Positions 10,394-55,722 of a stretch of DNA of 64,000 bases are shown here, piece after piece; position 1 is the first letter of the stretch, and every line of letters begins with the position of its first letter. A program made the position numbers and the translations under genes. The notes beneath the pieces were generated by a model that was not told the origin of the DNA, ran no database searches, and was given only the letters and a program-made list of their open reading frames with translations. Source of the DNA: an uncultured Verrucomicrobiae bacterium (GTDB lineage Bacteria; Verrucomicrobiota; Verrucomicrobiia; Limisphaerales; UBA11358); assembly GCA_963762585.1 (NCBI GenBank), contig CAVXLF010000008.1, positions 80,010-144,009 on the forward strand. Reading direction: 5' to 3'.

Positions 10394-11854
10394 CTACTTC
10401 GCTTTTTCCACCACGAGCATTTCGACGGGCTCATGAGCAGGGACCAGTTCGAGGCCGAGTTGATCCAACAGAGCCTGTTTCAGCCCGTCAACGTTGCGGT
10501 TCGCCTTGTCGGTGTCATCCCATTTTACATCCATGTCGAATCCCCCCGCCAAACCGGTCCGGTCAACCACCGGTGTTCCCAGATACAATTCCAAAAAATA
10601 AGTCAGGGCTGAGATGGGCTGGTTGACACAAGAATATTCGCCGAATTGCGGGTTGTTATTATGGCCGCCGGTCCGGTTTGATTTCAAACCCGGGGCGTTT
10701 GAATGTTTCACGGTGAGAACCAAAACATTGGTTTCGATCGTCTCAAGCCTGCCGACCAGACCAAATCTTCTTTTTATTTCCGCTTGCAAGGCGGGCGCCG
10801 TCCCGTTCGGCAGATTGGCGATGAAGTCATATCTTTCTTGCGGCAGTTCCGTGGCAATAACCATCCGAGCCTGAGTGGCATAGGCTGCTTCCAGCATATC
10901 AATGATCCTGGCGCTTATTCCTAAAACCCTGCCGTTGTTAGCTGCCCATCCACCTCCGCCGGATTTAAGAAATTTGGCGGGCAAAATAGTGATTTGAGGG
11001 GAAGCGTGTTCCAGCACCTTGACGTCCGGGTGTGGAACCTCCCAGGAATATTTCCAGTGATCGTGAATTTCTTTGACGGTGACGATGGTGGTTCCAGCGG
11101 CGAGCAGGACGCTGACGCCGATGACGATTGCCGTTTTTGCTTTGGTCCAGGCCATAATTTTCAATGCTCCTTTGATGAGGGTTAAGGTTGAAGTCGAAGC
11201 CGCCGCGCCTTTGGCCAGCGCCACGGCGGTCACGGATTTGGCCAGCGTCGCGGGCACCGCCTGGACGGAATTTGCGGAAATCGCCCCGGCCAGGATGGCC
11301 GTGGTCGAACTCACGCCGCGTTTCGCGAAAAAATTCCGCAATTTTTCCAAGGCCCGGCTGACGCGCTTTTGCGCCGAGTTTTCCGCCAGCCCCAGGAACT
11401 TCCCCACTTCGGCCATGCTTTTGTTTTGAAAATACCGCAACACCAGCGCGTCACGCTCGCTCGTGCCCAGACCGGCCATCGCCTCATCCAGTTGCGGTGA
11501 TAATTCACGCCAGAGGGCGTCGTTGACGGATTCTTCGAGCTGGGATTGCATGAACGCCTCCTGTTCGCGACGGATGCGGCGCGTTTCCGCCCGTTGCAGA
11601 TTGGCCGCTGTCAGCCGCGCCGTGTGGTAAAGCCAGCCGGGCAAAACGGTCTTGCGCCCGAGCGTCCCGGCCTTGCGCGCCAAAATGACAAACACGGCCT
11701 GCGTGATGTCCTGCGCGTGCTGCGCATTGGCCGTGTGCCGCAGCGCCACGGAGTGGACGAGGGCAATGTGCCGCTGCACCAGCGCGGCGAAGGCTTCCTC
11801 GGAACCGTTCCGGGCGAATTGTTCCAGCAACCGGGCATCAGGCACATCGGTCAT
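10394..11854 (-). CDS. ECF-type sigma-70 family factor fused to a TM segment and a TIGR03435-like C-terminal domain (paralogue 1)
   Basis: Region 2 'FAALVQRHIALVHSVALRH...DITQAVFVILARKA'. Region 4 'LGTSERDALVLRYFQNKSMAEVGKFLGLAENSAQKRVSRALEKLR'. Linker 'STSTLTLIKGALKIMAWTKAKTA'. TM 'IVIGVSVLLAAGTTIVTV'. C-terminal end 'LDQLGLELVPAHEPVEMLVVEKAK'. Confidence 0.8.
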   Translation of the reverse strand: MTDVPDARLLEQFARNGSEEAFAALVQRHIALVHSVALRHTANAQHAQDITQAVFVILARKAGTLGRKTVLPGWLYHTARLTAANLQRAETRRIRREQEAFMQSQLEESVNDALWRELSPQLDEAMAGLGTSERDALVLRYFQNKSMAEVGKFLGLAENSAQKRVSRALEKLRNFFAKRGVSSTTAILAGAISANSVQAVPATLAKSVTAVALAKGAAASTSTLTLIKGALKIMAWTKAKTAIVIGVSVLLAAGTTIVTVKEIHDHWKYSWEVPHPDVKVLEHASPQITILPAKFLKSGGGGWAANNGRVLGISARIIDMLEAAYATQARMVIATELPQERYDFIANLPNGTAPALQAEIKRRFGLVGRLETIETNVLVLTVKHSNAPGLKSNRTGGHNNNPQFGEYSCVNQPISALTYFLELYLGTPVVDRTGLAGGFDMDVKWDDTDKANRNVDGLKQALLDQLGLELVPAHEPVEMLVVEKAK

Positions 11855-11860
11855 TCAACA

Positions 11861-11892
11861 ATTATATGTGCGTCGGCAGCGGAATCTGACAA
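11861..11892 (-). promoter_or_regulatory. putative promoter of sigma paralogue 1 with TATAAT 6 nt from the ATG
   Basis: Gene-sense sequence 'TTGTCAGATTCCGCTGCCGACGCACATATAATTGTTGAATG'. Perfect TATAAT, no Shine-Dalgarno sequence. The TTGTCAGATT element resembles the one upstream of paralogue 4. Confidence 0.4.
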
Positions 11893-11958
11893 GGAATTTT
11901 CAATTTGGGGCGCGTTCGACCACAATCATTTCAATCGGTGTACAAAAAGTGGCGGCTG

Positions 11959-13410
11959 TCATCTGGCCACGACAACCCCTGCTGTGGCGCGTTGCAAGGC
12001 GTTTGGAGGCAGCACTTGGAGCGTTTCATCCACACGCCAGTTTGCAGGGTCAGACTTGTCGAAGCTGCCCATCAGCAGGAATTGATCGGCAATATTCACA
12101 CCCCGGAACTGCCGGGTCTTGTTGTTGAAGACAATATAGTCCGTCGGACCGTGGAAGATGCCGTTCATGTTGTTTAGGGCATCCGGCGAGACGGTTCCGT
12201 AAATGACGAGACTATTCTTGGGGTTAAGCGGGTTGGGACAGACAAAGATGGCTCCCACGTCGCGCCCTTTGCATTTCTTGTTTCCCACCACGATGCCGTC
12301 GTCTTCAAAGAGAATCGGCAACTGGTCGCGCACCCGCCGGAAGAGGCTATGATTTTCCGGCGAGCCGTAGATGTAAATCGTCCGCGTCTGGATGTCCTGT
12401 TCGGTCAACTCACGGTCGCTTTTTATGGTGCGGCCAGGTCCGGTATTCTTGGCGAACATTTTCATAATGCTCTCCAAATAACGATGGGTTGTCTCATCCC
12501 CGTCCGGGTAAGTGTAGATGGCATTGGGAATTTCATGGGCCTTGTTGATTCCATCAGTCAAGATCTGCCGGTTGAATTTCGCCCAGGTTGCCGGAGGCAG
12601 ATGCGCATTGGAGCGCGCGGTGTGGGATTTGATGACGATGGTGGTTGTGCCGGCTGCCAGAATGACGGCGGCGACGGCAACCACCGCCGTTTTTGCTTTG
12701 GTCCATGCCATAATTTTCAATGCTCCTTTGATGAGGGTTAAGGTTGAAGTCGAAGCCGTCACGCCTTTGGCAACCGCCACGGCGGTCACGGATTTTGCCA
12801 GCGCCAGCGGCGCAGCTTGAACGGAGTGGGCGGAAATCGCCCCGGCGATGATGGCCGTGGTCGAACTCACGCCGCGCCGGGAAAAATAACGGTGCAGCTT
12901 CTCCAGCGCGCGATGCACCCGGCTTTGGGCCGCCGCTTCCGTGACCTGTAATGCCGCTGCAACTTCGCGCAGGCTTTTGTCCTTGAAAAATCGCAGCACC
13001 ACGGCCTCGCGGTCCTTGTTCCCAAGCCGCGCCATCGCCTCGTCCAGCAGCGGTGAGAGTTGATGCCAGACTGAATCGCCGGTGGATTCCTGGAATGTGG
13101 ATTGCATATAAGCCTCCTGTTCGCGCCATTGCCGCCGCCGTTCCCCGCGGAGAAAACTCAAGGCCGTCAACCGCGTTGTTTCATAGAGCCAGGCATCGAG
13201 GATGGTGTCCGGGCGCAAGCCGGCGGCTTTGCGCGCGAGGATGACAAAGACCGCCTGCGTGATTTCCTCGGCGTGGGCGGCAATCCCGGCATGGCGGAGC
13301 GCCGCCGAATAAACCAAGTTGACATGGCGCCGGACCAATTCGGCAAAGGCTTCCTCCGAGCCTTGCCGCTGGTAATCCCGCAACAGGTCCATGTCGCGCA
13401 CATCGGGCAT
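11959..13410 (-). CDS. ECF-type sigma-70 family factor fused to a TM segment and an unrecognised C-terminal domain (paralogue 2)
   Basis: 'FAELVRRHVNLVYSAALRH', 'LGNKDREAVVLRFFKDKSLREVAAALQVTEAAAQSRVHRALEKL', 'STSTLTLIKGALKIMAWTKAKTAVVAVAAVILAAGTTTIVI'. About 210 aa follow with no motif I recognise. Confidence 0.75.
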   Translation of the reverse strand: MPDVRDMDLLRDYQRQGSEEAFAELVRRHVNLVYSAALRHAGIAAHAEEITQAVFVILARKAAGLRPDTILDAWLYETTRLTALSFLRGERRRQWREQEAYMQSTFQESTGDSVWHQLSPLLDEAMARLGNKDREAVVLRFFKDKSLREVAAALQVTEAAAQSRVHRALEKLHRYFSRRGVSSTTAIIAGAISAHSVQAAPLALAKSVTAVAVAKGVTASTSTLTLIKGALKIMAWTKAKTAVVAVAAVILAAGTTTIVIKSHTARSNAHLPPATWAKFNRQILTDGINKAHEIPNAIYTYPDGDETTHRYLESIMKMFAKNTGPGRTIKSDRELTEQDIQTRTIYIYGSPENHSLFRRVRDQLPILFEDDGIVVGNKKCKGRDVGAIFVCPNPLNPKNSLVIYGTVSPDALNNMNGIFHGPTDYIVFNNKTRQFRGVNIADQFLLMGSFDKSDPANWRVDETLQVLPPNALQRATAGVVVAR

Positions 13411-13500
13411 CTGACTATTTATTGCCGATGGGACCGGAAATCAGGCACTTAATTTTTTTATTTTTTTACCGCCGCGCCGGGAAACCGGAAACAAAACATT

Positions 13501-15000
13501 TTACTTCGCCTTTTCGACCACCAACATTTCGATGGGTTCGCGGCTGGGAACAAGCTCAAGGCCGAGCTGGTCGAGGACTACCTGCCTCAAACCGTCAGGA
13601 TTGGTGAAATAGTAATGTCCGGTGACATCCCATTTCATTTCGTCATCCCATGTGAGATCAACGTCGAAACGACCGGCAAGCCCGGTTCGGTTGACGACTG
13701 GAACCTGTAAATAATATTGAAGATCGTAGATCAGGTAATCAATGAGACCATCGGTGCGGCTCAAATGGCCAATGCCTTCACTGGACGTGGAGCTTCCGGC
13801 TTTAGAGGACGTTGGTTTCAAGCCGGGCGCATTGTGCCGCTTCACCGTCAGCAGCAAAACATCGGTTTCCCGCATCTCGCGCCGGCACGTGATTCCGAAC
13901 TTTTGTTTTATCATTTTCTGCAAGGCCTCTCTTGGACGCTGGGGAACACTGGTGATAAAATCAAAATCGCCCTGCGGCAGTGGCGTCAAAGCAAGAACGC
14001 GACATGGGCTGACGTTATAAGCTTTGGCCAAAAGCGATTCAAACGGCTGATAAACCCCAATGCTTTTCCCCTGCATCTCGTCAAAATCCGCCGCTTCGCG
14101 GGTGAATCTGGTTGGGCGTATGGAAACTGCCGGTTGCGCACTTATCAGTTCCGCATAAAAGTCAGTTCCGGTGATGTTTTTCCAGATGGATTCCTCGCGA
14201 TAATGTGAAACCACCTTGACGGTCAGGGTAGTCGTTCCGGCTCCTGCAAGAGCCACGGCGGCGATCACAATTGCAGATTTCATTTTTGTCCATGCCATAA
14301 TTTTCAGCACTCCTTTCGCTAGTGTCAGGGTTGAGGTGGTTCCGACGGTTCCCTTGGCAACGGCCACGGAAGCCACGGAAGCCGTCAGGCCCGCAGGCGC
14401 CGCCTGGGCGCCATGGGCCGAAATCGTTGCGAGCAGGACCGCCGACGGCACGGCGAATCCCTGGCGAGCGAAGATCAGCCGCAGCTTTTCCAACGCGCGC
14501 GAGACGCGCACCTTGGCGGCGTCCTCGCTCACGCCCAACGTCGCCGCCACTTCCCGGTGGCTTTTGTCCTGGAAAAAGCGGACCAGAACAGCCTCGCGGT
14601 CCTTCCGGGGAAGTTTGTCGAGCGCGTCATTGAGATGCGGCACGATTTGTTCCCAAACCGATGCCGTGTCGTCCGGTCGAAGAATGTTTTCCATCATGAC
14701 TGCCTCCTGTTCGCGGCGCTGGTGGCGGATTTGTTCGCGCGCCACATTGCTGAAGGCAAATCGCGTGGCCCGGAAAAGCCAGCCGGAGAGGACGGCGCCG
14801 CGCGGGATGCGGTCCGCCTTTTGCGCCAGCGCGATGAACACCGCCTGGGTCACCTCCTCCGCCGTGTGTGGATTGCCGGCCTGCCGCAGGGCCGCGTGAT
14901 AGACCAGCCCGGCGTAACGGTCCACGAGCGCGCGAAACGCCTCCTCGGAGTTTCGGGTCGCGTATTCGCGGAGCAATTGCCAGTCGTCCATCGTGTTCAT
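13501..15000 (-). CDS. ECF-type sigma-70 family factor fused to a TM segment and a TIGR03435-like C-terminal domain (paralogue 3)
   Basis: 'FRALVDRYAGLVYHAALRQ', 'LPRKDREAVLVRFFQDKSHREVAATLGVSEDAAKVRVSRALEKLR', 'LKIMAWTKMKSAIVIAAVALAGAGTTTLTV'. C-terminal end 'LDQLGLELVPSREPIEMLVVEKAK'. Confidence 0.8.
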   Translation of the reverse strand: MNTMDDWQLLREYATRNSEEAFRALVDRYAGLVYHAALRQAGNPHTAEEVTQAVFIALAQKADRIPRGAVLSGWLFRATRFAFSNVAREQIRHQRREQEAVMMENILRPDDTASVWEQIVPHLNDALDKLPRKDREAVLVRFFQDKSHREVAATLGVSEDAAKVRVSRALEKLRLIFARQGFAVPSAVLLATISAHGAQAAPAGLTASVASVAVAKGTVGTTSTLTLAKGVLKIMAWTKMKSAIVIAAVALAGAGTTTLTVKVVSHYREESIWKNITGTDFYAELISAQPAVSIRPTRFTREAADFDEMQGKSIGVYQPFESLLAKAYNVSPCRVLALTPLPQGDFDFITSVPQRPREALQKMIKQKFGITCRREMRETDVLLLTVKRHNAPGLKPTSSKAGSSTSSEGIGHLSRTDGLIDYLIYDLQYYLQVPVVNRTGLAGRFDVDLTWDDEMKWDVTGHYYFTNPDGLRQVVLDQLGLELVPSREPIEMLVVEKAK

Positions 15001-15075
15001 CCGTTCTGCTTATAAACAGCCGCCGGATGAAAAAGGTAACAAGAAATTGTGCGGATGGAAATTCGCGACCAATGC

Positions 15076-15110
15076 AAAACGTGATAATGTCACGCCTCAC
15101 GTTTCACGAT
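15076..15110. repeat. short TCACG-type heptamer element / small hairpin
   Basis: 'AAACGTGATAATGTCACGCCTCACGTTTCACGAT' contains units TCACGCC TCACGTT TCACGAT. AAACGTGA pairs with TCACGTTT. This is the same unit family as the repeats at 19151 and 19728. Confidence 0.5.
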
Positions 15111-15120
15111 CTCAACAGGT

Positions 15121-15681
15121 TCAAGCGGCTTGTTCCAAAACGTGAATCTCGAACACGCAACGTTTGCCATCGCGCAGGACGGATTCCTTAAGTTCCACCT
15201 TGACCTTCTTTTGCAGCAGCGTTTCCCAAGTGTGCTTTTGCCAGCCCAGGGAGCAATTGCAGACGACTTGCGGGGTGTGATGTTCACGGCTGTTCAGCGG
15301 GCAGAAGCAGTCGGTCCGTTCATCGGACGCCATCGTGATGAGGCCCTTGTCCCAATCGTAGGTGATGTTGTCGCCGGACACGCCTTTTTTGACGGCTTGA
15401 CGGAACCCTTCGAGGTCGCTGCGGGATTTCTTAAGCCATTCATCGCCCAGGCCTGAACAATAAGCACCCAATTCAAACAAGGTTTCGTTCAATGTCTTTT
15501 CGTCCATCCGGCGGGAAAGAATTCCCAACAGTTTGGCGTAGCGTTGTTTGACGAACCGGAGGCGCCAGTCGTCGGGCGCCTTGGTCTCGGCGCCGGGAGC
15601 AGCATCGGGAACAATCGTACCGACAGCCGCGCAGGCACAGACGGCGCAGGCGCAATTTTTAAGAAATTCTTTTCGGTTCAT
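15121..15681 (-). CDS. hypothetical Cys-rich protein
   Basis: 186-aa ORF. N-terminus 'MNRKEFLKNCACAVCACAAVG' (Tat-like context but only one Arg). C-terminal Cys cluster 'TDCFCPLNSREHHTPQVVCNCSLGW'. Confidence 0.5.
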   Translation of the reverse strand: MNRKEFLKNCACAVCACAAVGTIVPDAAPGAETKAPDDWRLRFVKQRYAKLLGILSRRMDEKTLNETLFELGAYCSGLGDEWLKKSRSDLEGFRQAVKKGVSGDNITYDWDKGLITMASDERTDCFCPLNSREHHTPQVVCNCSLGWQKHTWETLLQKKVKVELKESVLRDGKRCVFEIHVLEQAA

Positions 15682-15697
15682 AACAGGTTGGGGCTGG

Positions 15698-16117
15698 TTA
15701 ATTCGCCAGCTTGATCGCGGCGAGCTTCTTGACCACTGCCAGATCTTTCGATGCTTTCACTTCGAGGCGGACACCGGTTCCTTCGGCATACCGTTTGGCT
15801 TCGTTGATGATCTTGAGGACGCGTGGCGGAAGTTTGCTTTGCCGCGCAGCCTGCACCGCCTTGTCACCGAGAGCGAACGACACCCGGAAGCAACCCGGAC
15901 ACGGAGAAAGATAAATGATGTTCCGCTGCTCGCGCTTCAGGCGCAGCGACCAGCCCGCCTTGGGCGAGTAAGAATTCCATTCCTGGCCGGCGACACCGCA
16001 CTCATCCGCCAGATCAGCTATCAGTTGATTCCAGAGAACCTTGGCCGGACCAAGCGCAGCGGTCAGTTCGCCATCGGTTGGTTGCTTTGCGTGGCCGATA
16101 AATGCGTTCGGAGACAT
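15698..16117 (-). CDS. DUF3788-like protein
   Basis: Start at 'MSPNAFIGHAKQPTDGELTAALGPAKVLWNQLIADL'. 'WNSYSPKAGWSLRLKREQRNIIYLSPCPGCFRVSFALGDKAV' resembles DUF3788 as I remember the family. Confidence 0.55.
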   Translation of the reverse strand: MSPNAFIGHAKQPTDGELTAALGPAKVLWNQLIADLADECGVAGQEWNSYSPKAGWSLRLKREQRNIIYLSPCPGCFRVSFALGDKAVQAARQSKLPPRVLKIINEAKRYAEGTGVRLEVKASKDLAVVKKLAAIKLAN

Positions 16118-16160
16118 GGAATCCAGGCTATTGCTTGAGATGATTGGTTTTCGTTTCCAT

Positions 16161-17684
16161 TTATGGCACCGCCGCAACCTGCTGCTGCGACTGGTAAAGC
16201 AATGCGACTTCATTGCTGGAAAGCGCGCGGTTCCACATCATGGGCTCGTCAATCAGGCCGCGAAAGGATGAACCCAGGTCATCCTCCGTCAAATTGGAAC
16301 GGTTGCAACCAATCACCAGGTTGAAATTGTTGGCTCCCACCCGCCCCGGCTGTTCCCAACGCATGCTGGCTTGAGGCTGGCCATCGACGTAGAGCCATTC
16401 CTCGTTCCCATCACAGGTGGTGACAATCTGATGCCATTGCCCGTCGGCCACCTTGGTCTTCGACAAAATGAAGTGTGTTCCCGGCCCGATCTCGATGCTC
16501 GCCAGGCCGCGCCAATTGTTTTTCTGATAATCGCCCGCAACACTGAGGGCGAAGCCCAGGGTGTAGGATTTGTCGAAAATGCGCCGCCACTTGGCATCCG
16601 TGTAGGCGGTCTTGATCCAGGCTGCCAGGGTCAGTTGTTTGGGATTCAGCGACTTGTTGTTCGCGATCACAATCTCGTCGCCGTCGGAGGTGAATTCATA
16701 CGCCCCGCCCCGCCGGCCATCGGCCGTCCAGCGTACCCCGGCGGCCACGCCATGGTTTTCCTGGCCGCTGCCGTCGGTGATTTGGCCACCCTTGATTTTG
16801 CCGCTGCTGTCCGAAATCACGCCGTGGATCGCCTCGTCCTGGTCGAAGGTCATGTCCAGCACCAGCCCCTCGCGCAGGCTTTGCGCCGTGACGGGCGCAT
16901 GGGCCCGGGCATGTTTGATTTTTGCCGTGGAAACGGAGACGACAACAATGGCGAGAATGACCGCCGCGATGATGATGGTGGTTTTTTTCATAAGCATGGT
17001 TTTGATCAGGGTGGATGCGAGGCTGAAAGCGCTCGAACCCGCCGCCCCGGCGAGCGCCGCCGTGCTCACGGTCGCCGCCAGGCCCGCCGGCGCCGCCTGG
17101 ACGGCATTGGCGGCAATCATCGAAACCATCGCGGTGGAGGAAGCAACCATGCCCCGGCGGACAAAATGGGATCGAAGCTTTTCCACCGCCCGGCTGACGC
17201 GTTTTTGGGCCGCATCCTCATTGCTGCCCAACGCCTCACCAATGGCGCGGAGGTCGCGATGTTCGAAAAAGCGCAGGACAATCGCCGCGCGATCGCGGGC
17301 GTCCAGCTGGTTGATGGCGTCGTCCAAAATGGGAGCAATCTGCTCAAAGCTGGTCTCGGCACAGTCCGATAGTGTGTTCATTTCAGCGGCCTCTCTTTCA
17401 CGGTGTTGCCGGCGGCGCTCGTTTCGCATGAGCGTGGTGGCCACATGCCACGTGCGCCGGTGCAGCCAGCCGCCGAGCATGACATCCTGGGAAAGCGTCC
17501 CTGCCAGCCGCGCCAGATCCGCGAACACCGTCTGCGCCACATCTTCGGCCCGGTGCGTGTCCCCATTGACCAGCCGAACGGCTGTCGAATAGACCAGATT
17601 GATGTAGCTCGCGACCAGTTCGCGAAACGCCTGTTCCGAACCGTTGGCGACATAGTCTGCAAGCAATGTCCGAGGTTCCGTCAT
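16161..17684 (-). CDS. ECF-type sigma-70 family factor fused to a TM segment and a LamG (Laminin_G_3 / concanavalin-A-like) domain (paralogue 4)
   Basis: 'FRELVASYINLVYSTAVRL', 'LDARDRAAIVLRFFEHRDLRAIGEALGSNEDAAQKRVSRAVEKLR'. TM 'TTIIIAAVILAIVVVSV'. LamG pattern 'LTLAAWIK...DGQWHQIVTTCDGNEEWLYVDGQ...FRGLIDEPMMWNRALSSNEVALLY'. Confidence 0.85.
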   Translation of the reverse strand: MTEPRTLLADYVANGSEQAFRELVASYINLVYSTAVRLVNGDTHRAEDVAQTVFADLARLAGTLSQDVMLGGWLHRRTWHVATTLMRNERRRQHREREAAEMNTLSDCAETSFEQIAPILDDAINQLDARDRAAIVLRFFEHRDLRAIGEALGSNEDAAQKRVSRAVEKLRSHFVRRGMVASSTAMVSMIAANAVQAAPAGLAATVSTAALAGAAGSSAFSLASTLIKTMLMKKTTIIIAAVILAIVVVSVSTAKIKHARAHAPVTAQSLREGLVLDMTFDQDEAIHGVISDSSGKIKGGQITDGSGQENHGVAAGVRWTADGRRGGAYEFTSDGDEIVIANNKSLNPKQLTLAAWIKTAYTDAKWRRIFDKSYTLGFALSVAGDYQKNNWRGLASIEIGPGTHFILSKTKVADGQWHQIVTTCDGNEEWLYVDGQPQASMRWEQPGRVGANNFNLVIGCNRSNLTEDDLGSSFRGLIDEPMMWNRALSSNEVALLYQSQQQVAAVP

Positions 17685-17693
17685 TGATCATCA

Positions 17694-17724
17694 GTAAAGC
17701 GCCGCCGGCCGGCAAATCCGACAA
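17694..17724 (-). promoter_or_regulatory. 31-nt promoter-like element upstream of sigma paralogue 4 (copy A)
   Basis: Gene-sense 'TTGTCGGATTTGCCGGCCGGCGGCGCTTTAC' ends 9 nt before the ATG at 17684. It matches 33587-33617 at 30 of 31 positions. Confidence 0.55.
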
Positions 17725-17865
17725 AAATAACCGGCGGATATTTCCCGAGTTATAAGGCGCCCGGAAGACCAAATGCAGCGGGCTAATCACGGCGCAGGCA
17801 GTTCGGCGGCGGCTTCGTTTCCTTTTTGCAAAAATCCGCCGATATCAACCCTGGCCGGGCGCAAA

Positions 17866-19131
17866 CTATTCGTATCTGAGCGACTCAATCGGGTCCAGGT
17901 TCGCCGCCTTGTAGGCCGGGTAGGTTCCAAAAACAATTCCGACCACCGAGCAAATCAACAGCCCCAGCACAATCCAGTCAAACGGGATGGTGGGTGGCAC
18001 TTTCATGTACCAGGCCAGGAGGTTGCCGCCCAGGATGCCCAGCACGACGCCGATGACGCCGCCGACTTCGCAGAGCACCACGGCTTCCATGATGAACTGG
18101 CCCATGATATTCCGGCGCTTGGCGCCGACGGCGCGGCGTACGCCGATTTCGCGCGTCCGTTCCGTGACCGAGACCAGCATGATGTTCATGATGCCGATGC
18201 CCGCCGCAATGAGCGCGATGGAACTGACAATCGCCACGCCCACCCGGACGGCGCGGGTGAACGTTTTAAATTGTTCGATGAGCGAATTGTTGGAAAACAG
18301 TTCGAAGTCATCCGGCGCGCCCGGCGGGACCTTGCGCACCGCCCGCAGGATGCCGCGCACCTGTTCAATGCAATCGTCATAGGTGGCGCCATCGCGCGCC
18401 TGCACCAGGATTGTCATATCGTCCCACCAGCGGCCGTAGCGGTTGAGCGCGGTGGTGATGGGGATGATGGCAAAATCGTCCTGCTGCCCGCCCAACGACG
18501 CCCCCTTGGTGGCGAGCACGCCGACGACCTGGTATTTGTAGCCGTTGATTTTAATCGGTTCGCCCACGGCTGCGCCAAAGGGGAAAACCGTTTTGGCCAG
18601 CGCGCTGCCCAGCACACAAACATCGCGGGCGTTGTCCACGTCGTCGGCTGTAAGGACGCGACCGTCGTCGATGTCCCAGTTGCGCGCGGCGAAACTGCCC
18701 GGGGTTTCACCATACAGGCGGGTGCTGGGCGCCGTCTGGGCGTAACGGGTCTGGACCTGTCCGCGCCAGAAATCGCCCTCGATGCCCACGTTGGCGGCCA
18801 GCGTGGCCTTCTCCTCCACCTGCCGGCTTTCTTCGAGGGTGATGTATTTGCGCCGCCAGTATTTTTGCCAGTCCGCGTTGTTGCCGAACTGGACTTCCGG
18901 CCAGCGCTGAATGGCAAAGGTCTGGCTGCCCAACCGGCTCATCCAGTTTTCAGTGTTCCGTTCCAGCACCCGCATCGCCGTCATCACGACGATGATGGAA
19001 AACACGCCAATCAGCACGCCGAGCAGGGTGAGCGCCGAACGCAGCTTGTGCGCCGCCAGCGCATTCATCGCCATGGAGAAGCTTTCGTGGACCTCGGCGA
19101 GGATTAACGTGGCTGCCGGTTTTGTTCTCAT
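17866..19131 (-). CDS. ABC transporter permease, MacB/FtsX family (second permease of the operon)
   Basis: N-terminal TM 'LRSALTLLGVLIGVFSIIVVMTAM'. Large periplasmic domain. FtsX-type C-terminus 'ERTREIGVRRAVGAKRRNIMGQFIMEAVVL...GTYPAYKAANLDPIESLRYE'. Confidence 0.9.
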   Translation of the reverse strand: MRTKPAATLILAEVHESFSMAMNALAAHKLRSALTLLGVLIGVFSIIVVMTAMRVLERNTENWMSRLGSQTFAIQRWPEVQFGNNADWQKYWRRKYITLEESRQVEEKATLAANVGIEGDFWRGQVQTRYAQTAPSTRLYGETPGSFAARNWDIDDGRVLTADDVDNARDVCVLGSALAKTVFPFGAAVGEPIKINGYKYQVVGVLATKGASLGGQQDDFAIIPITTALNRYGRWWDDMTILVQARDGATYDDCIEQVRGILRAVRKVPPGAPDDFELFSNNSLIEQFKTFTRAVRVGVAIVSSIALIAAGIGIMNIMLVSVTERTREIGVRRAVGAKRRNIMGQFIMEAVVLCEVGGVIGVVLGILGGNLLAWYMKVPPTIPFDWIVLGLLICSVVGIVFGTYPAYKAANLDPIESLRYE

Positions 19132-19150
19132 TGACCTGGGCTAATTGATC

Positions 19151-19199
19151 CGTGATGCGTAAAACGTGAAACGTGATCCGTAATGTGTGACGTGTAAAT
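19151..19199. repeat. seven CGTGAAA-type heptamers, distal flank of the four-helix-bundle gene
   Basis: Units: CGTGATG CGTAAAA CGTGAAA CGTGATC CGTAATG TGTGACG TGTAAAT. Confidence 0.7.
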
Positions 19200-19205
19200 G
19201 CATGG

Positions 19206-19715
19206 CTAAACCAGAGGAATGTTTTGGAGCGATTGCGCCAGTGCATCGGGATCGAAAGGTGAATCTGTGTCTGGTGGAGTCACAGGAATTCGGTAGGGTA
19301 GGCTGTCTTCGCGGAGGAGGGAGCCGCGCTGATCTGGTACCATCGTGAGCAACAGGCGGATGATTTGGCTCACAAGTCGAATCCTATGTTCGGCGACCTT
19401 TATGCCGAGCACATGCCGGCCTTTGTAAAACCAGTCACGGCTTTCGCGCGCGGAGCCAAGGCCATATTCATAAAACCGGGCGCGATCTTTGCCAGTACCC
19501 CGTGAATAGCCCTCGGCCACGTTTGCTCCGATGGACCCAATAGCCCGGTAAAGCTGGTCGGAAAGTCCGAGCGTGCGCTTGTCTTTCATCAATTTGCTCA
19601 CGTCATGCCAGCCCAGTTCCGTTGCGAACAGTGCCAGGCGATAGGCCTCAACTTTCCAAAGTGAATCATCTGTTATCTCCACGGGCACCGACTTTAACCA
19701 TTCATCATAATTCAT
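19206..19715 (-). CDS. four-helix-bundle protein (23S rRNA intervening-sequence protein family, TIGR02436-like)
   Basis: 'EAYRLALFATELGWHDVSKLMKDKRTLGLSDQLYRAIGSIGANVAEGYSRGTGKDRARFYEYGLGSARESRDWFYKGRHV'. Start taken at 'MNYDEW'; the ORF track starts at an upstream GTG at 19733. Confidence 0.8.
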   Translation of the reverse strand: MNYDEWLKSVPVEITDDSLWKVEAYRLALFATELGWHDVSKLMKDKRTLGLSDQLYRAIGSIGANVAEGYSRGTGKDRARFYEYGLGSARESRDWFYKGRHVLGIKVAEHRIRLVSQIIRLLLTMVPDQRGSLLREDSLPYRIPVTPPDTDSPFDPDALAQSLQNIPLV

Positions 19716-19727
19716 AACCAACCCCAT

Positions 19728-19755
19728 TCTCACGTTTCACGCATCACGTTTCACG
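19728..19755. repeat. four TTTCACG-type heptamers, proximal flank of the four-helix-bundle gene, inverted relative to 19151-19199
   Basis: Units TCTCACG TTTCACG CATCACG TTTCACG. The reverse complement is CGTGAAA CGTGATG CGTGAAA CGTGAGA. It matches units 1-3 of the other flank at 19 of 21 positions. Confidence 0.7.
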
Positions 19756-19757
19756 CC

Positions 19758-20996
19758 TCATTCACTCCTCAACGCCTCCACCGGGTCCATCCGCGCCGCG
19801 CGCCAGGCCGGCAGGAAACCGGAAATCACCCCGGTCAGCAACGACACCAGCAGGGACAGGGCGACAATGATCCCGGACAAGGATGCCGGAAACAGCCAGG
19901 CCGAAACCGCGAGCGTGACCAGCCAGGCGATGCCCAGACCGATCAACCCGCCCAACAGGCAGATGCAGGCGGCCTCGACCAGAAAATGCAGCAGGATGTT
20001 GCGGCGTTTGGCCCCAATGGCCTTGCGCACGCCGATCTCGCGTGTCCGCTCGACCACCGAGACGAACATGATGTTCATGATGCCGATGCCGCCAACGAAC
20101 AGCGCCAGGCTGGTGACGCACATACCGATGATGGCAATGGTGCGGGTTTCGCGGTGGAACATGTCCACGAACTGGTCCTGCTGGTTGATGGCAAAGTTGT
20201 CCAGTTCATCGGGCTTCAGGTGGCGGACGTGGCGCATGGCCTGGCGCAATTCCTCCCGGGCCTCGTCCAGTTGCGCCAGCCCGCCGGCCTTGATGTTGAT
20301 CTGGTCAATGCTGGGTGCGTTCCAGATGTCCGCCAAAAATTCCCGGATGGGAATAATCACCCGGTTGTCCAGGCTCCAACCGAGGATGGACCCCTGTTTA
20401 TCGAGCACGCCAATGACCTCAAAGGACTGGTCACTGACCTTGATCCGCGCCCCGATGGGCGGTTCTCCGCGAAAAAGGTTGGTGGCGACATCGCTGCCGA
20501 TGACGCAGACCGGCTGTCCGCCCTCGGCATCCGCGGCGGTCAAAAACCGTCCCCGGGCCACGGTCACACCGCTGGTTTCCAGATAAGCCTCGGTGGTGCC
20601 GATGATTTGAACGAGGTTGGCGCTGCGCGTCCGGTATTTCACCGCTTCAAAGTCGTCGACCTCGGGCGCCACGGCGGCGGCCAGGGCCAGTTGCCGGGAC
20701 AACGCCTCGGCCTCCGGGAGCCGGATGGGCGGGCGCCGCCGCTGGAGTTTAATCCAGTTGTCGTAGGAATCGTTGCTCCACCAGGAACTGCGCGAAACAT
20801 AAAACACATCCGCGCCCAGTGCCGAGATGCTTTTCATGAACGCCTGGTCCAATCCATGAATGGTCGCGCCCATGAGGGTGACGGTGAGGATGCCGATGAC
20901 GATGCCGAGGGTGGCGAGCATCGAGCGCATTTTATTCGCGCGGATGGCATCCCACGAAATGCCCAGGCCCTCGTGAATTTCGCTGAGAAATTTCAT
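19758..20996 (-). CDS. ABC transporter permease, MacB/FtsX family (first permease)
   Basis: Start at 'MKFLSEIHEGLGISWDAIRANKMRS'. C-terminus 'ERTREIGVRKAIGAKRRNILLHFLVEAACI...GFLPAWRAARMDPVEALRSE'. The upstream ORF extension lies inside a repeat. Confidence 0.9.
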   Translation of the reverse strand: MKFLSEIHEGLGISWDAIRANKMRSMLATLGIVIGILTVTLMGATIHGLDQAFMKSISALGADVFYVSRSSWWSNDSYDNWIKLQRRRPPIRLPEAEALSRQLALAAAVAPEVDDFEAVKYRTRSANLVQIIGTTEAYLETSGVTVARGRFLTAADAEGGQPVCVIGSDVATNLFRGEPPIGARIKVSDQSFEVIGVLDKQGSILGWSLDNRVIIPIREFLADIWNAPSIDQINIKAGGLAQLDEAREELRQAMRHVRHLKPDELDNFAINQQDQFVDMFHRETRTIAIIGMCVTSLALFVGGIGIMNIMFVSVVERTREIGVRKAIGAKRRNILLHFLVEAACICLLGGLIGLGIAWLVTLAVSAWLFPASLSGIIVALSLLVSLLTGVISGFLPAWRAARMDPVEALRSE

Positions 20997-21004
20997 CCGA
21001 GGAA

Positions 21005-21098
21005 AACATCGAACATCCAACATCCAACATCCAATGCCCAATGCGTGGTGGTTGGGCCTGAGTTCGTTGGATGTTCGGCGTTCGATGTTGGTTGTTGG
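21005..21098. repeat. about 95-nt imperfect palindrome built from AACATCC heptamers, between the ATPase and permease genes
   Basis: Left arm: AACATCG AACATCC AACATCC AACATCC AATGCCC. Right arm reverse complement: GAACATC CAACAAC CAACATC GAACGCC GAACATC CAACGAA. Confidence 0.75.
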
Positions 21099-21102
21099 AT
21101 GT

Positions 21103-21789
21103 TCATTTCACCGGTTTCTCGTCGCTGGCGATCAGGCCGTCGCGGATGCGGAGGATGCGGCGCGCCTGCCGGGCAATGTCCTCCTCGTGCGTGACGATGA
21201 TGATGGTGTTGCCTTTGCGTGAAAGATCATCGAACAAGGCCATGATTTCCGCGCCGGTCTTGGAGTCGAGGTTGCCGGTCGGTTCGTCAGCCAGCAGGAT
21301 GGAAGGTTTGTTGACAAGCGCGCGGGCGACGGCGACGCGCTGGCGCTGGCCGCCGGAAAGTTCGTTGGGTTTGTGATGAATGCGATCGGACAGGCCAACC
21401 TGGGCGAGCGCATCGAGCGCGATCTGACGGCGCTCCGCCGCCGGGACGCCGGCGTAAATGAGGGGCAGCTCGACGTTGTGCAGCGCGTTCGAGCGCGCCA
21501 GCAGATTGAAGGTCTGGAACACAAAACCGATCTCGCGGTTGCGGATTTCCGCCAGCTGGTTGTCGTCCATCTCGCTGACCTGGGCGCCGTTGAGTTCGTA
21601 ACCGCCGGAGGTCGGGGTATCGAGACAGCCGATGAGATTCATCAAGGTGGATTTGCCCGAACCGGACGGACCCATGATGGCGACGTATTCGCCGCGCTGG
21701 ATTTCGAGCGACACGTCGCGCAGCGCGTGGACGGTTTCCGCGCTCATCTGGTAGCGCCGCGAAATGTTCTGGAACCGGATGAGTGCCAC
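21103..21789 (-). CDS. ABC transporter ATP-binding protein (MacB/LolD type)
   Basis: Walker A '[12 protein letters not shown]'. Signature '[15 protein letters not shown]'. Walker B '[12 protein letters not shown]'. Confidence 0.95.
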
Positions 21790-21791
21790 GG

Positions 21792-23162
21792 TTAGTTTCC
21801 CGACACCTCGGCCGCCGGAGCGCCCTTGTGAATCTTCGAGCCATCCTGGAGATCGCGGCTGATGGCGCGGTACCCGCCGGAGATGACTTCCTCGCCGTTG
21901 GTGAGGCCGTCGGTGATTTCCCAGTAATTGTCGTCGCAGATGCCGATTTTCACCGGCACGACTTCCACGTGGTCACCCTTCACCACAAACACCACGTCCA
22001 TCGGCTTGGCCGATTCCTTGTCTTTCGAGACCGACGCAACAACGTTCGTACCCGCCGCGCCATTGGTGCCCGCTGCGGCGGTGACATTCGTGGAAGCGGT
22101 GGAATTGGTTCCGCCGGTTTTGGGTGGATCCATTTTCTTTGGCGTAACCGGGCGGGTGGTGACGCTGGCGAGCGGGACGGTGAGCACATTGGTGCGATAA
22201 CTGGTTTCAATGTCGGCGCTGACGGACATGCCGGGCCGGAAGTCTTCCTTGTCACTTAACCGGATGCGCACTTGAAACTTGGTTGCCTCCTGCGACTGGC
22301 CGTTGCCGCCGGAATTGCCGGCCGGCAGGTTGCTGTCCTTCGAGGAACTGGCGACATCTGTCACCACGCCGTTGAATTTGCGATCCTTGAAGGCGTCCAC
22401 CTCCAGGCGTGCCTTCTGGCCGGGAGTAATACCCACCACATCCATTTCGCCCACGTCCACCTGCGCCTCCATCTGGTTCAAATCCGAGATGACCAGGATT
22501 TCAGTCCCGGCAAATTGCGCGGTGCCCAGAACCCGCTCGCCGAGCTGCGAGTTCAATTTGCTGATGGTGCCGTTGAGCGGCGAAATAATCGTCGTTTTGT
22601 TCAGCGAATCCTCGGCACTATCCTCGAGCGCCTTGGCGACGTTCACTTGGTCATCGGCACTGTCGAGTTGTGCCTTGGCCACATTCCGGGCGGATTTGAA
22701 ACCGATGAAATCCGATGCGGAAAGCAGCTTGCGGTTGAACAACTCCAGGTTGCGGTCATAGTCCGCCTCGGCTTTTTCCAGGTTTGCCGTGGCCGAATCC
22801 CTGGCGGCAAGCGAGGATTCGTAACCCGCCTTCGCCTGGTTGAGCGCGGCCGTGTAAATGTCCGGGTTGATCTTCACCAGCAAATCACCTTTTTTGACCT
22901 GCTGCCCTTCCTTGACCGGCAAATCGATGATTTCGCCGCTGACCTCGGGGCTGATGGTGACCTGGATGACGGGCTGAATCTTGCCATTGGCAATGACGAT
23001 GTTGGTAAGGCTGTGGAGCGAGACCTTTTCCGTCTGGACGGTAATGGCCGGTTGGCGTTTTTTGAAGACGGCCAGCAGCACCAACGCGACCAGCACCAGC
23101 CCGATGACCGCGAAAATGATGAGCTTCCGGCGTTTTTTGGATTTGGCCATGATATTTGTCAT
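21792..23162 (-). CDS. efflux periplasmic adaptor subunit (HlyD/MacA family)
   Basis: N-terminal TM '[20 protein letters not shown]'. Lipoyl/barrel motifs '[27 protein letters not shown]' and '[13 protein letters not shown]'. Its stop overlaps the ATPase start region. Confidence 0.9.
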
Positions 23163-24800: not shown

Positions 24801-25934
24801 TCATTCATTGATGTGGATGACTTTCGCGGGCAAAAAGCCGTTGAATTGGGTCGCCGAAGCATTGCTGTAGGCGCCGATGTTTTCCGCGTAAACCAGGTCC
24901 TCGATTTCCAGGTCCGGCAACTGCTCGGATTGGGAGATGACATCCAGCCCGTCGCAGGTCTGGCCGAACACGGCACAAATTTCCGTTTTCCCCTTCCGGA
25001 ACGCCTTCAGGTGATACTGGCAATGATCGAAAATGATGCCGCTGAACGTGTGATAGACGCTGTCATCGATGTAATAGCACCGTTTTCCATCGCGCACGGC
25101 CTTGCCGATGATGCGCGCCACGGAGGTCGCCGCCGTCGCCACCAGAAACCGTCCCGGCTCGGCCAGAATCTGGATGTCGGGAGCGAACAACCGGTCAATC
25201 TCGGCGTTGATGACACGCGTCAGTTCGCGGAACGGCCGGACGTGCCGGTTATAGGGCGCGGGAAAGCCGCCGCCGATGTCGAGGATCTTGATTTCATGGC
25301 CGCGGGATTTGGATTCCCGCATCACCGCGGCGGCGGTGTTGAGCGCCTGCACAAAATTTTGAAAATTCGTGCACTGGCTGCCGACATGGAAGCTCAAGCC
25401 CTCGACGACCAGCCCCAGTTTGAAGGCGGCCCGGATCAGGTCCACCGCTTCACCGGGCGCGCAACCGAATTTGGACGACAGCTCGCACTGCGAGCCGGTG
25501 TTGTCCACCCGCAATCGCAGCACCACGCCGGCGTGCGGAGCGTACTGCCGGATTTTTTTCAGTTCGTTCAGGTTGTCGTAGGTCACGAGCGGCTTGTACC
25601 GGTCGAGCGCCAGCAACGTTTCCTTCGGTTTGGTCGGATTGGCGTAGATGATTTTGTCCCAGATGAAATCCTGCTGCCGTTTTGCCGGCAGATGCTTGAC
25701 GTTGTCATAAACCAGCATGAACTCCGGCAGCGACGCGACGTCGAAGCTGGCCCCCACCTTGTAGAAGGTGCGGATGATGGCCGGCTCGGCGTTGGCCTTG
25801 ACGGCGAAATAGCATTGCACCTTGGGCAGGTGCCGGCGGAATTCGGCGTAATTTTTGCGGAGGATGTCGTGGTCAATGATGACCAGCGGCGTTCCGTGCT
25901 GCTTCGCAAGCGACTGGAGCTGTTTCTTGGTCAT
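24801..25934 (-). CDS. type III PLP-dependent decarboxylase (ornithine/lysine decarboxylase-like)
   Basis: 'CYFAVKANAEPAIIRTFYKVGASFDVASLPE', 'LSFHVGSQ', 'LDIGGGFP', 'ILAEPGRFLV', 'GQTCDGLD'. Confidence 0.85.
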   Translation of the reverse strand: MTKKQLQSLAKQHGTPLVIIDHDILRKNYAEFRRHLPKVQCYFAVKANAEPAIIRTFYKVGASFDVASLPEFMLVYDNVKHLPAKRQQDFIWDKIIYANPTKPKETLLALDRYKPLVTYDNLNELKKIRQYAPHAGVVLRLRVDNTGSQCELSSKFGCAPGEAVDLIRAAFKLGLVVEGLSFHVGSQCTNFQNFVQALNTAAAVMRESKSRGHEIKILDIGGGFPAPYNRHVRPFRELTRVINAEIDRLFAPDIQILAEPGRFLVATAATSVARIIGKAVRDGKRCYYIDDSVYHTFSGIIFDHCQYHLKAFRKGKTEICAVFGQTCDGLDVISQSEQLPDLEIEDLVYAENIGAYSNASATQFNGFLPAKVIHINE

Positions 25935-25983
25935 AAACGTAATCGGCAGACGCGGCTTTAATGGGTTTGCTTCAGCGAGACAA

Positions 25984-26011
25984 GAAAAAACGGGCCGGGA
26001 TCATCCCGGCC
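25984..26011 (-). terminator. Rho-independent terminator after the deoxyhypusine-synthase-like gene
   Basis: Minus strand 'GGCCGGGA TGA TCCCGGCC' (8-bp perfect stem) is followed by 'CGTTTTTTCTT'. It begins 29 nt after the stop at 26040. Confidence 0.7.
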
Positions 26012-26039
26012 ATCCAGCAGAGAGACAGCTGAATCCGTT

Positions 26040-27251: not shown

Positions 27252-27382
27252 AATTCAGATAAATTTTGTGCCGCTTACGATACAAACCCTGGCGCCGATG
27301 ACAAACTTTAATTGCGTCCAACTCCGGCACACCGCGGGAAGAGCGGAAGCCGGAAGGGGTTGGAATGGCTGGAAGCAGCCAG

Positions 27383-28441: not shown

Positions 28442-28680
28442 AAGCGTGAGAACGTTGTTAGCAATCGCTGTTCCTAGTTCAGCTTCGTCCATTTCGCGGG
28501 ATTTTTCATCAAACCACCTTCACTTTTTTAAACATTTTTTATTTGAACTAATCCAAAACGTGGCCGATAGTAATGGTTGAAGAGTTGAGTAATTCCAGAC
28601 TGGACGTTATTTCCCCGGTAAATGGGCTTCGTTTCGAGATTTCCCCGGCACAACGGAACGGTTATGCTCTGTGCGCTATT

Positions 28681-33495: not shown

Positions 33496-33586
33496 CGGAG
33501 CGCGGGTCATGCAAACGGCTTCAGCCCGGCCCGGATTCCGTCCCCACCCTCGGATTTCCCATCCTAACCGAAGATTTTTTGATTTA

Positions 33587-33617
33587 TTGTCGGATTTGCC
33601 GGCGGGCGGCGCTTTAC
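33587..33617 (+). promoter_or_regulatory. 31-nt promoter-like element upstream of the GH2 gene (copy B)
   Basis: 'TTGTCGGATTTGCCGGCGGGCGGCGCTTTAC' ends 8 nt before an in-frame ATG at 33626 and 98 nt before the signal-peptide Met at 33716. Confidence 0.55.
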
Positions 33618-33715
33618 AGTTAACCATGAGAAATCATCAAGCCATCGTCCATCTGAACGGCTTTCAACCGCGCAGTCTGTTGCCATCCCAGTCAAAACCA
33701 GCTAATCTACGCCCA

Positions 33716-55681: not shown

Positions 55682-55722
55682 GGTTTCCTTTTTGGCTTCA
55701 CTTTGCAGGTGTCCGGTTGAGG

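Follow-up and report, generated by a model that had tools for sequence, protein, structure and literature searches.

A tandem array of ECF sigma factors with predicted single-helix membrane tethers and exchangeable C-terminal domains in an uncultured Verrucomicrobiae bacterium

Introduction

Extracytoplasmic function (ECF) sigma factors with C-terminal extensions, including those that contain a transmembrane (TM) helix, are already an established class in the literature. In IutY of Pseudomonas putida, an ECF243 hybrid, the sigma part is released through Prc and RseP (PMC5411451, PMC8999054), and proteolytic activation has been predicted for the actinobacterial groups ECF48, ECF52 (SCO4117 of Streptomyces coelicolor) and ECF53 (PMC5826349, PMC8999054). 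The planctomycetal group ECF57 (formerly ECF01-Gob) has a WD40-like C-terminal extension and 5.3 copies per planctomycetal genome, and a review describes two conserved cysteines that link its sigma2 and sigma4. Here we describe four genes, S1–S4, in a 64,000-nucleotide (nt) stretch of an uncultured Verrucomicrobiae bacterium (contig CAVXLF010000008.1, positions 80,010-144,009; hereafter the window), each of which fuses an ECF sigma factor through a conserved linker and one TM helix to a C-terminal domain. We favor, with moderate confidence, the view that they are autoregulated single-polypeptide transmembrane signal transducers, oriented N-in/C-out and probably released by proteolysis. Literature searches on membrane-tethered or membrane-bound sigma factors, and on Verrucomicrobia with ECF, found nothing relevant.

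Results and Discussion

Array organization and sigma modules

An initial annotation of this DNA had proposed four co-oriented paralogues, and the open reading frames (ORFs) are present as described, all on the minus strand. The genes and their parts, with the supporting analyses (Pfam/NCBIfam profiles, Kyte-Doolittle hydropathy and AlphaFold2 [AF2] models), are as follows:

10394-11854, minus strand: S1, 486 amino acids (aa); ECF sigma, linker, TM helix and TIGR03435/DUF3738 domain (ORF, Pfam/NCBIfam, AF2 model)
11959-13410, minus strand: S2, 483 aa; ECF sigma, linker, TM helix and unassigned C-terminal domain (ORF, Pfam/NCBIfam)
12631-12687, minus strand: S2 TM helix
about 11962-12627, minus strand: S2 C-terminal domain (AF2, weak Foldseek matches)
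13501-15000, minus strand: S3, 499 aa; ECF sigma, linker, TM helix and TIGR03435 domain (ORF, Pfam/NCBIfam, Kyte-Doolittle)
14218-14274, minus strand: S3 TM helix
13507-14049, minus strand: S3 TIGR03435 domain
16161-17684, minus strand: S4, 507 aa; ECF sigma, diverged linker, TM helix and Laminin_G_3 domain (ORF, Pfam/NCBIfam, Kyte-Doolittle)
16923-16979, minus strand: S4 TM helix
16203-16679, minus strand: S4 Laminin_G_3 domain

Alignment of the four proteins is good as far as about residue 262, with a mean column identity of 67%; beyond it only S1 and S3 are related. The extension after sigma4 is about 300 aa, with a C-terminal domain of 220-250 aa. The parts of S1 are:

11579-11782, minus strand: sigma region 2, aa 25-92 (Pfam PF04542; helices at pLDDT, the predicted local distance difference test score, of 76-89)
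11333-11494, minus strand: sigma region 4, aa 121-174 (Pfam PF08281/PF04545)
11132-11317, minus strand: post-sigma4 linker, aa 180-241, consisting of helix A, helix B and the juxtamembrane motif GALKIMAWTKAKT (alignments)
11075-11131, minus strand: TM helix, aa 242-260, AIVIGVSVLLAAGTTIVTV (Kyte-Doolittle 19-mer mean 2.31)
10400-10945, minus strand: TIGR03435/DUF3738 domain, aa 304-485 (pLDDT 85-94)

The claim that each protein has a complete ECF module holds, with all four scoring above the curated cut-offs for Sigma70_r2 (PF04542) and Sigma70_r4_2 (PF08281), and at 67.7-78.1 bits for TIGR02937 (sigma70-ECF; cut-off 42.9). The Pfam scan gives no match to Sigma70_r3 or r1 in any of the four, and the presence of sigma2 and sigma4 with the absence of regions 1.1 and 3 places them among the ECF (group 4) sigma-70 factors. 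Failure of the N-termini to score as sigma-70 regions 2 and 4 had been named beforehand as grounds for doubt, and it did not occur. Foldseek matches of the S1 model at E<=0.001 are almost all ECF sigma factors. The proteins belong with the ECF factors that have a regulatory C-terminal extension, since sigma4 is followed by more than 50 aa and no neighboring gene encodes a separate anti-sigma; they fall outside the Rhodopirellula/Verrucomicrobium ECF subfamily TIGR02989, scoring 32.5-54.2 bits against a cut-off of 124.55. The reported lack of an anti-sigma gene is likewise confirmed, as the neighboring genes (DUF3788, a Cys-rich ORF, a MacB-type ABC transporter and an SNF2 helicase) encode no recognizable anti-sigma domain.

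Linker, TM helix and topology

Between sigma4 and the TM helix is a conserved linker of about 60 aa rich in Ala, Ser and Thr. The initial annotation gave all four linkers the ending STLTL(I/A)KG(A/V)LKIMAWTK(A/M)K(T/S)A; this is correct for S1–S3, but the form in S4, FSLASTLIKTMLMKKTT, has diverged. None of the linkers has a cluster of Cys or His. Among 150 representatives the juxtamembrane motif (aa 229-241) is the most conserved stretch of the protein, with a mean commonest-residue fraction of 0.87 and 8 of 13 columns conserved at 90% or more; the corresponding fractions are 0.77 for helix B, 0.72 for helix A, 0.70 for sigma2, 0.68 for sigma4 and 0.57 for the TM helix, falling to 0.20 past it.

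The single strongly hydrophobic helix reported for each protein is present at about aa 236-261 (Kyte-Doolittle 19-mer mean 1.9-2.7), preceded in each by three or four lysines. Whether there are one or two membrane passes had been left to the weakly hydrophobic stretch TTAILAGAISANSVQA, which scores only 1.3-1.6; this favors one. The same pattern is seen in 136 representatives, where the median 19-mer hydropathy is 2.17 for the TM segment versus 1.41 for the best linker 19-mer, and Lys plus Arg average 3.76 in the 15 residues before the helix versus 2.29 after it; a further hydrophobic segment occurs in one of the 136 and in none of the other 135. We also considered a three-TM topology in which helices A and B span the membrane, and rejected it on the basis of their hydropathy (1.2-1.6), the lysines in helix B and the length of helix A (11 residues).

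Stand-alone homologues of the S2-type and TIGR03435-type C-terminal domains begin exactly at MAW(T/S)KxK followed by a hydrophobic helix, so that the same segment serves there as an N-terminal signal anchor. LamG, Big_1, CarboxypepD_reg, PD40 and FGE-sulfatase domains, which recur in the family (see below), are usually extracytoplasmic in bacteria. A cytoplasmic location of the C-terminal domains, the second of the grounds for doubt, is thus disfavored by the single TM segment, the charge bias, the stand-alone anchors and the types of C-terminal domain, and a predicted single-pass N-in/C-out orientation is well supported.

The AF2 model of S1 has a mean pLDDT of 76.5, with sigma2, sigma4 and the C-terminal domain confident and the linker at 35-76, and places helices at residues 185-195 (11 residues), 204-232 (Lys-containing) and 246-266 (TM). 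Its sigma module superposes closest on anti-sigma-bound ECF factors (CnrH/CnrY at 6.6 Å, RpoE/NepR at 7.7 Å and SigW/RsiW at 9.1 Å; Foldseek root-mean-square deviation), whereas holoenzyme-bound forms superpose at 22-28 Å. The modeled sigma thus appears to be in a closed form like that bound by an anti-sigma factor, which is suggestive but weak.

C-terminal domains

The four C-terminal domains had been described as TIGR03435-like in two proteins, LamG in one and unrecognized in one, and profile searches agree throughout. Matches to DUF3738 and TIGR03435 have E 6e-22 (78.5 and 80 bits) for S1 and E 4e-20 (72.7 and 74.2 bits) for S3, above the cut-offs of 40 bits (NCBIfam) and 22 bits (Pfam). 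S4 matches Laminin_G_3, of the concanavalin A-like lectin/glucanase type, at aa 336-494 with 78.8 bits (E 6e-22; Pfam gathering threshold 27.6). The S2 domain has no Pfam or NCBIfam match, and a search by sequence for its fold gave nothing. It is modeled at pLDDT 88.9, and weak Foldseek matches (E about 1e-3, TM-score about 0.4) are to BcsB, a periplasmic subunit of cellulose synthase, and to an S-layer anchoring domain from an archaeon. We do not claim homology.

The TIGR03435 domain has no PDB relative by sequence, and there is none among the 50 Foldseek matches listed for full-length S1, nearly all of which are sigma factors. None of the papers searched names TIGR03435 or DUF3738, and we found neither a published function nor a solved structure for the domain. 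We note a relative (P0034, 576 aa) with PDZ domains after the TIGR03435 domain, a module of the protease-recognition type fused to the sensor.

Family size and distribution

S1 has relatives in more than 7,800 database clusters at 90% identity (E<=1e-5); among the best 120, almost every protein is full-length and shares the sigma plus DUF3738 architecture, and the named ones are Verrucomicrobial. With a profile of the N-module (sigma, linker and TM helix), a library clustered at 50% identity gives 15,227 representatives at E<=1e-30. Of the best 150 of these, almost every match extends through the TM helix, and the proteins are 302-749 aa long. In a scan of one genome per species we found 271 relatives, nearly all in metagenome-assembled genomes (MAGs) of Verrucomicrobiota/Verrucomicrobiia/Limisphaerales.

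We sampled 78 related loci, and counts of complete N-modules also take in the window. The complete N-module is present in 162 of 176 matches, and the remainder are mostly contig-end truncations or frameshifted fragments. Half of the loci have arrays of two to six co-oriented copies, and in a single MAG the sampled loci already add up to at least 17 copies.

These numbers bear on the third ground for doubt, that the sigma and sensor parts might be separate genes elsewhere and joined here by lost stop codons. Some database entries are indeed split, one of them into three called genes (L079), but the ORF is continuous in the four paralogues, in 162 genes from many independent assemblies and in thousands of independent clusters; the parts are normally fused, and an assembly or annotation artefact is effectively refuted. 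We can dismiss nearly as firmly the idea that the sigma module plays no part in signaling and is a constitutive cytoplasmic tail, or that it is a decaying remnant, with the arrays being paralogous exported proteins. It is very improbable given the bona fide ECF scores, the dedicated promoter motif that accompanies the genes and the clear constraint on sigma2 and sigma4, of which 31 of 92 and 18 of 67 columns, respectively, are at least 90% conserved in the 150 representatives.

Some family genes look incomplete. At several sites (L011 8730, L013 8983, L014 9109, L077 9112 and, likewise, L014 4052, L077 7360 and L003 11460) the family promoter motif is followed by only the first 10-50 sigma-fusion codons and then stops; these are pseudogene remnants or long-read frameshift errors.

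Exchange of C-terminal cassettes

The suggestion that these genes form a combinatorial family with sensors swapped at the TM boundary is strongly borne out by comparisons of C-terminal clusters, domains and DNA breakpoints. The C-terminal parts of the 162 proteins form 27 BLAST clusters. DUF3738 is present in 32 of 103 representatives (Pfam), and the remaining C-terminal domains of this set are HEAT, PD40, Big_1, CarboxypepD_reg, FGE-sulfatase, LamG, Ank, TPR, Redoxin or of no known family. At the position syntenic with S1, N-modules 91-93% identical to that of S1 carry four different C-terminal clusters, and S2-type N-modules at 89-95% identity also carry four. There are 42 nearest-neighbor pairs in which the N-modules are at least 75% identical and the C-termini unrelated. 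DNA identity of 92-93% begins about 70-85 nt upstream of the ATG, and so includes the promoter, and stops at codons 242-257, placing the break inside the TM-coding segment near LLAAGTT. We propose that new channels would arise when recombination in the conserved DNA coding for the juxtamembrane and TM segments replaces the C-terminal cassette.

A few sigma-less cassettes are found in or beside the arrays, on the same strand and starting at a conserved MAWTKxK-type motif. One example is at L016 11292-11362, where MAWSKAK, a TM helix and 115 aa are preceded by about 60 nt of retained linker-coding DNA that is not in frame. A second is at L039 12660-14069, which starts at SSTSTLIQGALKIVAWTKAK, and others (L042, L054 and L067/L068) start at MAWTKTK or MAWSKSK. 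P0285 (L080-L082) is genuinely stand-alone and sits behind an unrelated pair of HTH_3 and membrane-protein genes. A further candidate, P0275, was rejected as a stand-alone C-terminal domain; it is part of the fragmented fusion gene noted above (L079), in which region 2, region 4 and the C-terminal domain are called separately.

A promoter-like motif upstream of the family genes

When the upstream regions of 160 family genes are aligned at their right ends, a shared motif appears, nAAAAtannTTGTCccnTTT(N8)GGCGgnCATtTAtngGt, also written nAAAAtannTTGTCccnTTT-N-GGCGgnCATtTA; in 121 of the genes its end lies 2-3 nt from the start codon. With a position weight matrix (PWM), 152 of 191 matches above 22 bits in the 78 loci are directly upstream of family genes. 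The other matches mostly have no ORF of at least 80 aa directly downstream, and those inspected include frameshifted remnants of family genes; further ones lie before family genes cut off by a contig end, prepilin-type/DUF1559 genes or a TIGR03435 gene that stands alone. The copies in the window are listed below; the highest score in 20 shuffles was 14.5 bits.

11858-11901, minus strand: promoter-like motif, S1 (40.8 bits)
13414-13457, minus strand: promoter-like motif, S2 (32.8 bits)
13458-13501, minus strand: second, weaker motif copy between the S3 stop codon and the S2 promoter (15.9 bits)
15008-15051, minus strand: promoter-like motif, S3 (30.7 bits)
17690-17733, minus strand: promoter-like motif, S4 (22.5 bits)
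33578-33621, plus strand: S4-type motif in the holB-GH2 intergenic region (20.4 bits)

In L005, L006, L015, L016 and L026, a sequence closely resembling the weaker copy at 13458-13501 is the promoter of a further paralogue, one that is absent from the window; the copy here may have been left by an array member since lost, or may belong to a tandem promoter. Motif variants are specific to paralogue types and conserved among orthologues. In S4-type motifs of other genomes TTGTCGGATTT and GGCGCTTTAC are kept and the mid-spacer is variable, the pattern expected of -35 and -10 elements. We infer that the motifs are ECF-type autoregulated promoters giving transcripts that are leaderless or nearly so.

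S4 and its candidate regulon

Besides S1–S4, the motif is found in the window only before a gene of glycoside hydrolase family 2 (GH2). This gene and the two between S3 and S4, which were correctly described as encoding Cys-rich and DUF3788-like proteins, are:

15121-15681, minus strand: Cys-rich gene, 186 aa, with a Tat-like N-terminus (MNRKEFLK)
15698-16117, minus strand: DUF3788 gene (Pfam, E 2e-28), 43 nt downstream of S4
33626-36613, plus strand: GH2 glycoside hydrolase, candidate S4 target (Pfam, translation)

The likely true start of the DUF3788 gene is at 16117, such that it does not overlap S4, with which it is probably co-transcribed. The Cys-rich protein matches no Pfam or NCBIfam family, but in four other loci (L005, L016, L026 and L033) it is conserved at 85-92% and DUF3788 invariably accompanies it. 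In one of these (L026 3020-5113) an S4-type motif lies directly before a 301-aa Tat-like ORF. The DUF3788 and Cys-rich genes come next on the same strand without an intervening S4-type sigma gene, an arrangement suggesting that these genes belong to the S4-type regulon.

The 31-nt core before the GH2 gene is the same as that of the S4 promoter at 30 of 31 positions, and the flanks differ. The first ATG of the GH2 gene is 4 nt past the 44-nt motif window and 8 nt past the core, and the signal peptide begins at the second Met (nt 33716). Judging from these sequences, S4 would control its own operon (S4, DUF3788 and Cys-rich genes) and the secreted GH2.

Proposed mechanism and alternatives

The reading of these proteins as one-polypeptide transmembrane signaling devices has gained support, none of the three refutations proposed for it having succeeded. 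We suggest that the cytoplasmic ECF sigma would be tethered to the inner membrane by the two-helix linker, the Lys-rich juxtamembrane motif (GALKIMAWTKAK) and one TM helix, with the variable periplasmic domain as the input module. At rest the sigma would be held at the membrane and probably also kept closed and unable to engage RNA polymerase by the linker in cis. A signal at the outer domain would lead to a site-1 cut, then to intramembrane cleavage in the small-residue LLAAGTT of the TM helix and to trimming of the Ala-rich stub, and the freed sigma would transcribe its own gene from the family promoter directly before the ATG, plus a small regulon. For S4 this regulon would be the co-transcribed DUF3788 and Cys-rich genes and the secreted GH2 glycosidase. 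Because sensor domain and promoter variant both differ between the paralogues, these would form parallel, insulated channels. When RseA is cleaved it exposes a C-terminal LAA-like degron for ClpXP; by analogy, an RseP-like cut at LLAA|GTT could leave a C-terminal LAA resembling it.

Several points weigh against this proposal. Searches with the linker against Pfam (E<=10) and with a PDB profile search give no match, including to zf-HC2, FecR, RskA, CnrY and NepR. Cis-inhibition by the linker, modeled as it is at a pLDDT of 35-76, is weakly supported, and AF2 may favor compact ECF conformations anyway. No genes for a site-2 protease (S2P), a PDZ protease or Prc/CtpA were found in the window, and the HEAT, Ank and TPR domains at the C-termini of some family members are not typical periplasmic modules. 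The promoter-like motif could be read not by the sigmas of the family but by some other factor, such as the housekeeping sigma, and the spacer identity of the S4 and GH2 motifs could reflect a recent duplication and not shared regulation.

The strongest alternative is that the sigma acts while still tethered, in the manner of ToxR or CadC, with the ligand altering the conformation of the linker or its oligomeric state such that the sigma is unmasked and, uncleaved, recruits core RNA polymerase to nearby DNA at the membrane. The linker is, after all, highly conserved in sequence over its roughly 60 aa and not merely flexible, there is no protease nearby in the window, and the targets (the gene itself and its neighbors) are in cis, next to the site of protein synthesis. 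However, a sigma factor must assemble with a core enzyme of about 400 kDa and travel with it through initiation, and the candidate S4 target GH2 is 16 kb away. IutY, the sole fused sigma/anti-sigma with experimentally shown activation, uses proteolysis, the same is predicted for ECF52, and the small-residue AAGTT in the TM helix appears to resemble features of S2P substrates. We regard tethered action as unlikely relative to proteolytic release.

Quite improbable, in our view, is a second alternative in which the genes make two products, the Met of KIMAWTK being an internal start for a sigma-less, anchored periplasmic protein; the C-terminal domain would then be mainly an effector or binding module, with the sigma coupling its abundance to transcription. 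This would account for the conservation of Met234 (90% or more), for the stand-alone genes that start exactly at MAW(T/S)KxK (P0285 in L080-L082, and L032, L042, L054 and L067) and for a stand-alone TIGR03435 gene downstream of a family promoter motif in L057. The Met lies, however, within a motif that is conserved as protein (W236, K238 and K240), which fits a structural role, and sigma-less forms make up about 5% of copies. Neither an internal promoter nor a ribosome-binding signal was noticed, although no search was aimed at them.

Returning to proteolytic release, we can sketch a larger picture, which we consider possible but rather doubtful as a whole: a hyper-expanded Verrucomicrobial family of autoregulated tethered sigmas (over 15,000 clusters at 50% identity, and dozens of gene copies in a genome) whose sensor cassettes recombine and leave sigma-less orphans behind, and whose linker would be a new class of cis-acting anti-sigma relieved by intramembrane proteolysis.

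Neighboring genes and other features

In the related loci the commonest neighbors of family genes are prepilin-type N_methyl/DUF1559 genes, with 77 ORFs in 33 of the 78 loci (examples are at L010 11542, L020 6895, L029 11474 and L075 9124). Those bearing a prepilin motif are co-oriented with the nearest family gene in 64 of 66 instances, and 11 have the family motif within 400 nt upstream.

Elsewhere in the window are genes for an SNF2 helicase, a MacB-type ABC exporter with its HlyD partner, rpoD, GH26, GH2, and polyamine and lipopolysaccharide functions. Three regions contain features outside the sigma array:

19206-19733, minus strand: gene of the 23S rRNA-intervening-sequence protein family (PF05635), between two MacB-type permease genes in the operon 17866-23162
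24801-29781: cluster of ornithine/arginine decarboxylase, deoxyhypusine synthase-like and PAD_porph (agmatine deiminase-type) genes, which looks like a polyamine (homospermidine-type) pathway
52712-60150, minus strand: two overlapping large ORFs, a 1475-aa GH2 with fn3 and invasin-like domains and a 1194-aa product with Ig-like domains

A different ECF fusion, of a sigma with a multi-pass membrane extension, is present in three of the sampled loci (L004 6868-8349, minus strand; L027 56-1606, minus strand; L036 5907-8696, plus strand), and is reminiscent of the ECF263-type extension with its 5-7 TM helices (ECF reclassification paper).

Significance and comparison with known systems

If our reading is correct, this family would rank among the largest of one-polypeptide transmembrane transcription switches and be the dominant route from outside cues to gene expression in a major soil and peat phylum, probably with glycan sensing included, as the pairing of LamG with GH2 suggests. 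It would also assign a function to TIGR03435/DUF3738 and provide a testable example of sensor-domain cassette exchange. The fixed body of sigma, linker and TM helix, with a compact promoter of its own and an exchangeable sensor, would lend itself naturally to the building of orthogonal synthetic sensors. Three additions appear to be undescribed: the promoter motif common to the family, the link of S4 to GH2 and the exchange of cassettes at a TM-coding handle.

Like IutY, S1–S4 have an N-terminal ECF sigma, a single TM helix and a predicted periplasmic C-terminal domain in one polypeptide. IutY, however, has a FecR-type region and a TonB-dependent transducer, whereas S1–S4 have no FecR match and their C-terminal domains are highly variable; there is no TonB-dependent receptor gene among the scanned ORFs of the window. 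ECF52, ECF48 and ECF53 are similar in joining an ECF sigma to an extension that contains a TM part and an extracytoplasmic domain, which in ECF52 is carbohydrate-binding and comparable to the LamG of S4. They differ in having a zinc-finger (ZAS-like) region between the sigma and the TM part, one or two TM helices and an actinobacterial origin; S1–S4 have no zf-HC2, are from Verrucomicrobiota and have a different linker and juxtamembrane motif.

With ECF57 the family shares an origin in the Planctomycetes-Verrucomicrobia-Chlamydiae (PVC) superphylum, a long C-terminal extension and multiple copies, and PD40 is present in some of its members, although not in S1–S4. The S1 sigma module lacks any Cys, unlike ECF57. 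The extensions of ECF01-Gob also hold a TM helix. The lack of a FecR region and of a zinc finger, and its origin outside the Actinobacteria, set the S1–S4 family apart from IutY/ECF243 and ECF48/52/53; it may correspond to an existing numbered group, ECF57 included.

Two systems with separate anti-sigma factors offer partial parallels. In CnrH-CnrY (a class II anti-sigma), as in other short anti-sigma peptides that lead straight into a TM helix, there is a similar short, two-helix cytoplasmic peptide directly before the TM helix, but CnrY is a separate protein and no sequence similarity to the linker was detected. In the RsgI/SigI systems of cellulolytic Clostridia, several paralogous channels in one genome, with different extracytoplasmic carbohydrate-binding sensors, drive glycoside-hydrolase genes, and the putative pairing of S4 (LamG) with a GH2 gene is analogous; there, however, sigma and anti-sigma are two proteins, and SigI does not belong to the ECF factors. 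A published abstract also speaks of SigI paralogues.

The manner of evolution can be likened to that of the Rhs/CdiA polymorphic toxins. By analogy with these, there is a conserved N-terminal body with unrelated C-termini in close relatives and a break at a conserved handle, and downstream promoter-less cassettes keep part of that handle (L016 11292-11362; L039 12673). C-terminal displacement in Rhs/CdiA leaves orphan cassettes. The differences are that the swapped part here is the sensor domain of a transcription factor and not a toxin, and that there are only a handful of orphans. Evolution by cassette displacement, previously tied to polymorphic toxins, would here, if this is true, apply to transcriptional signaling.

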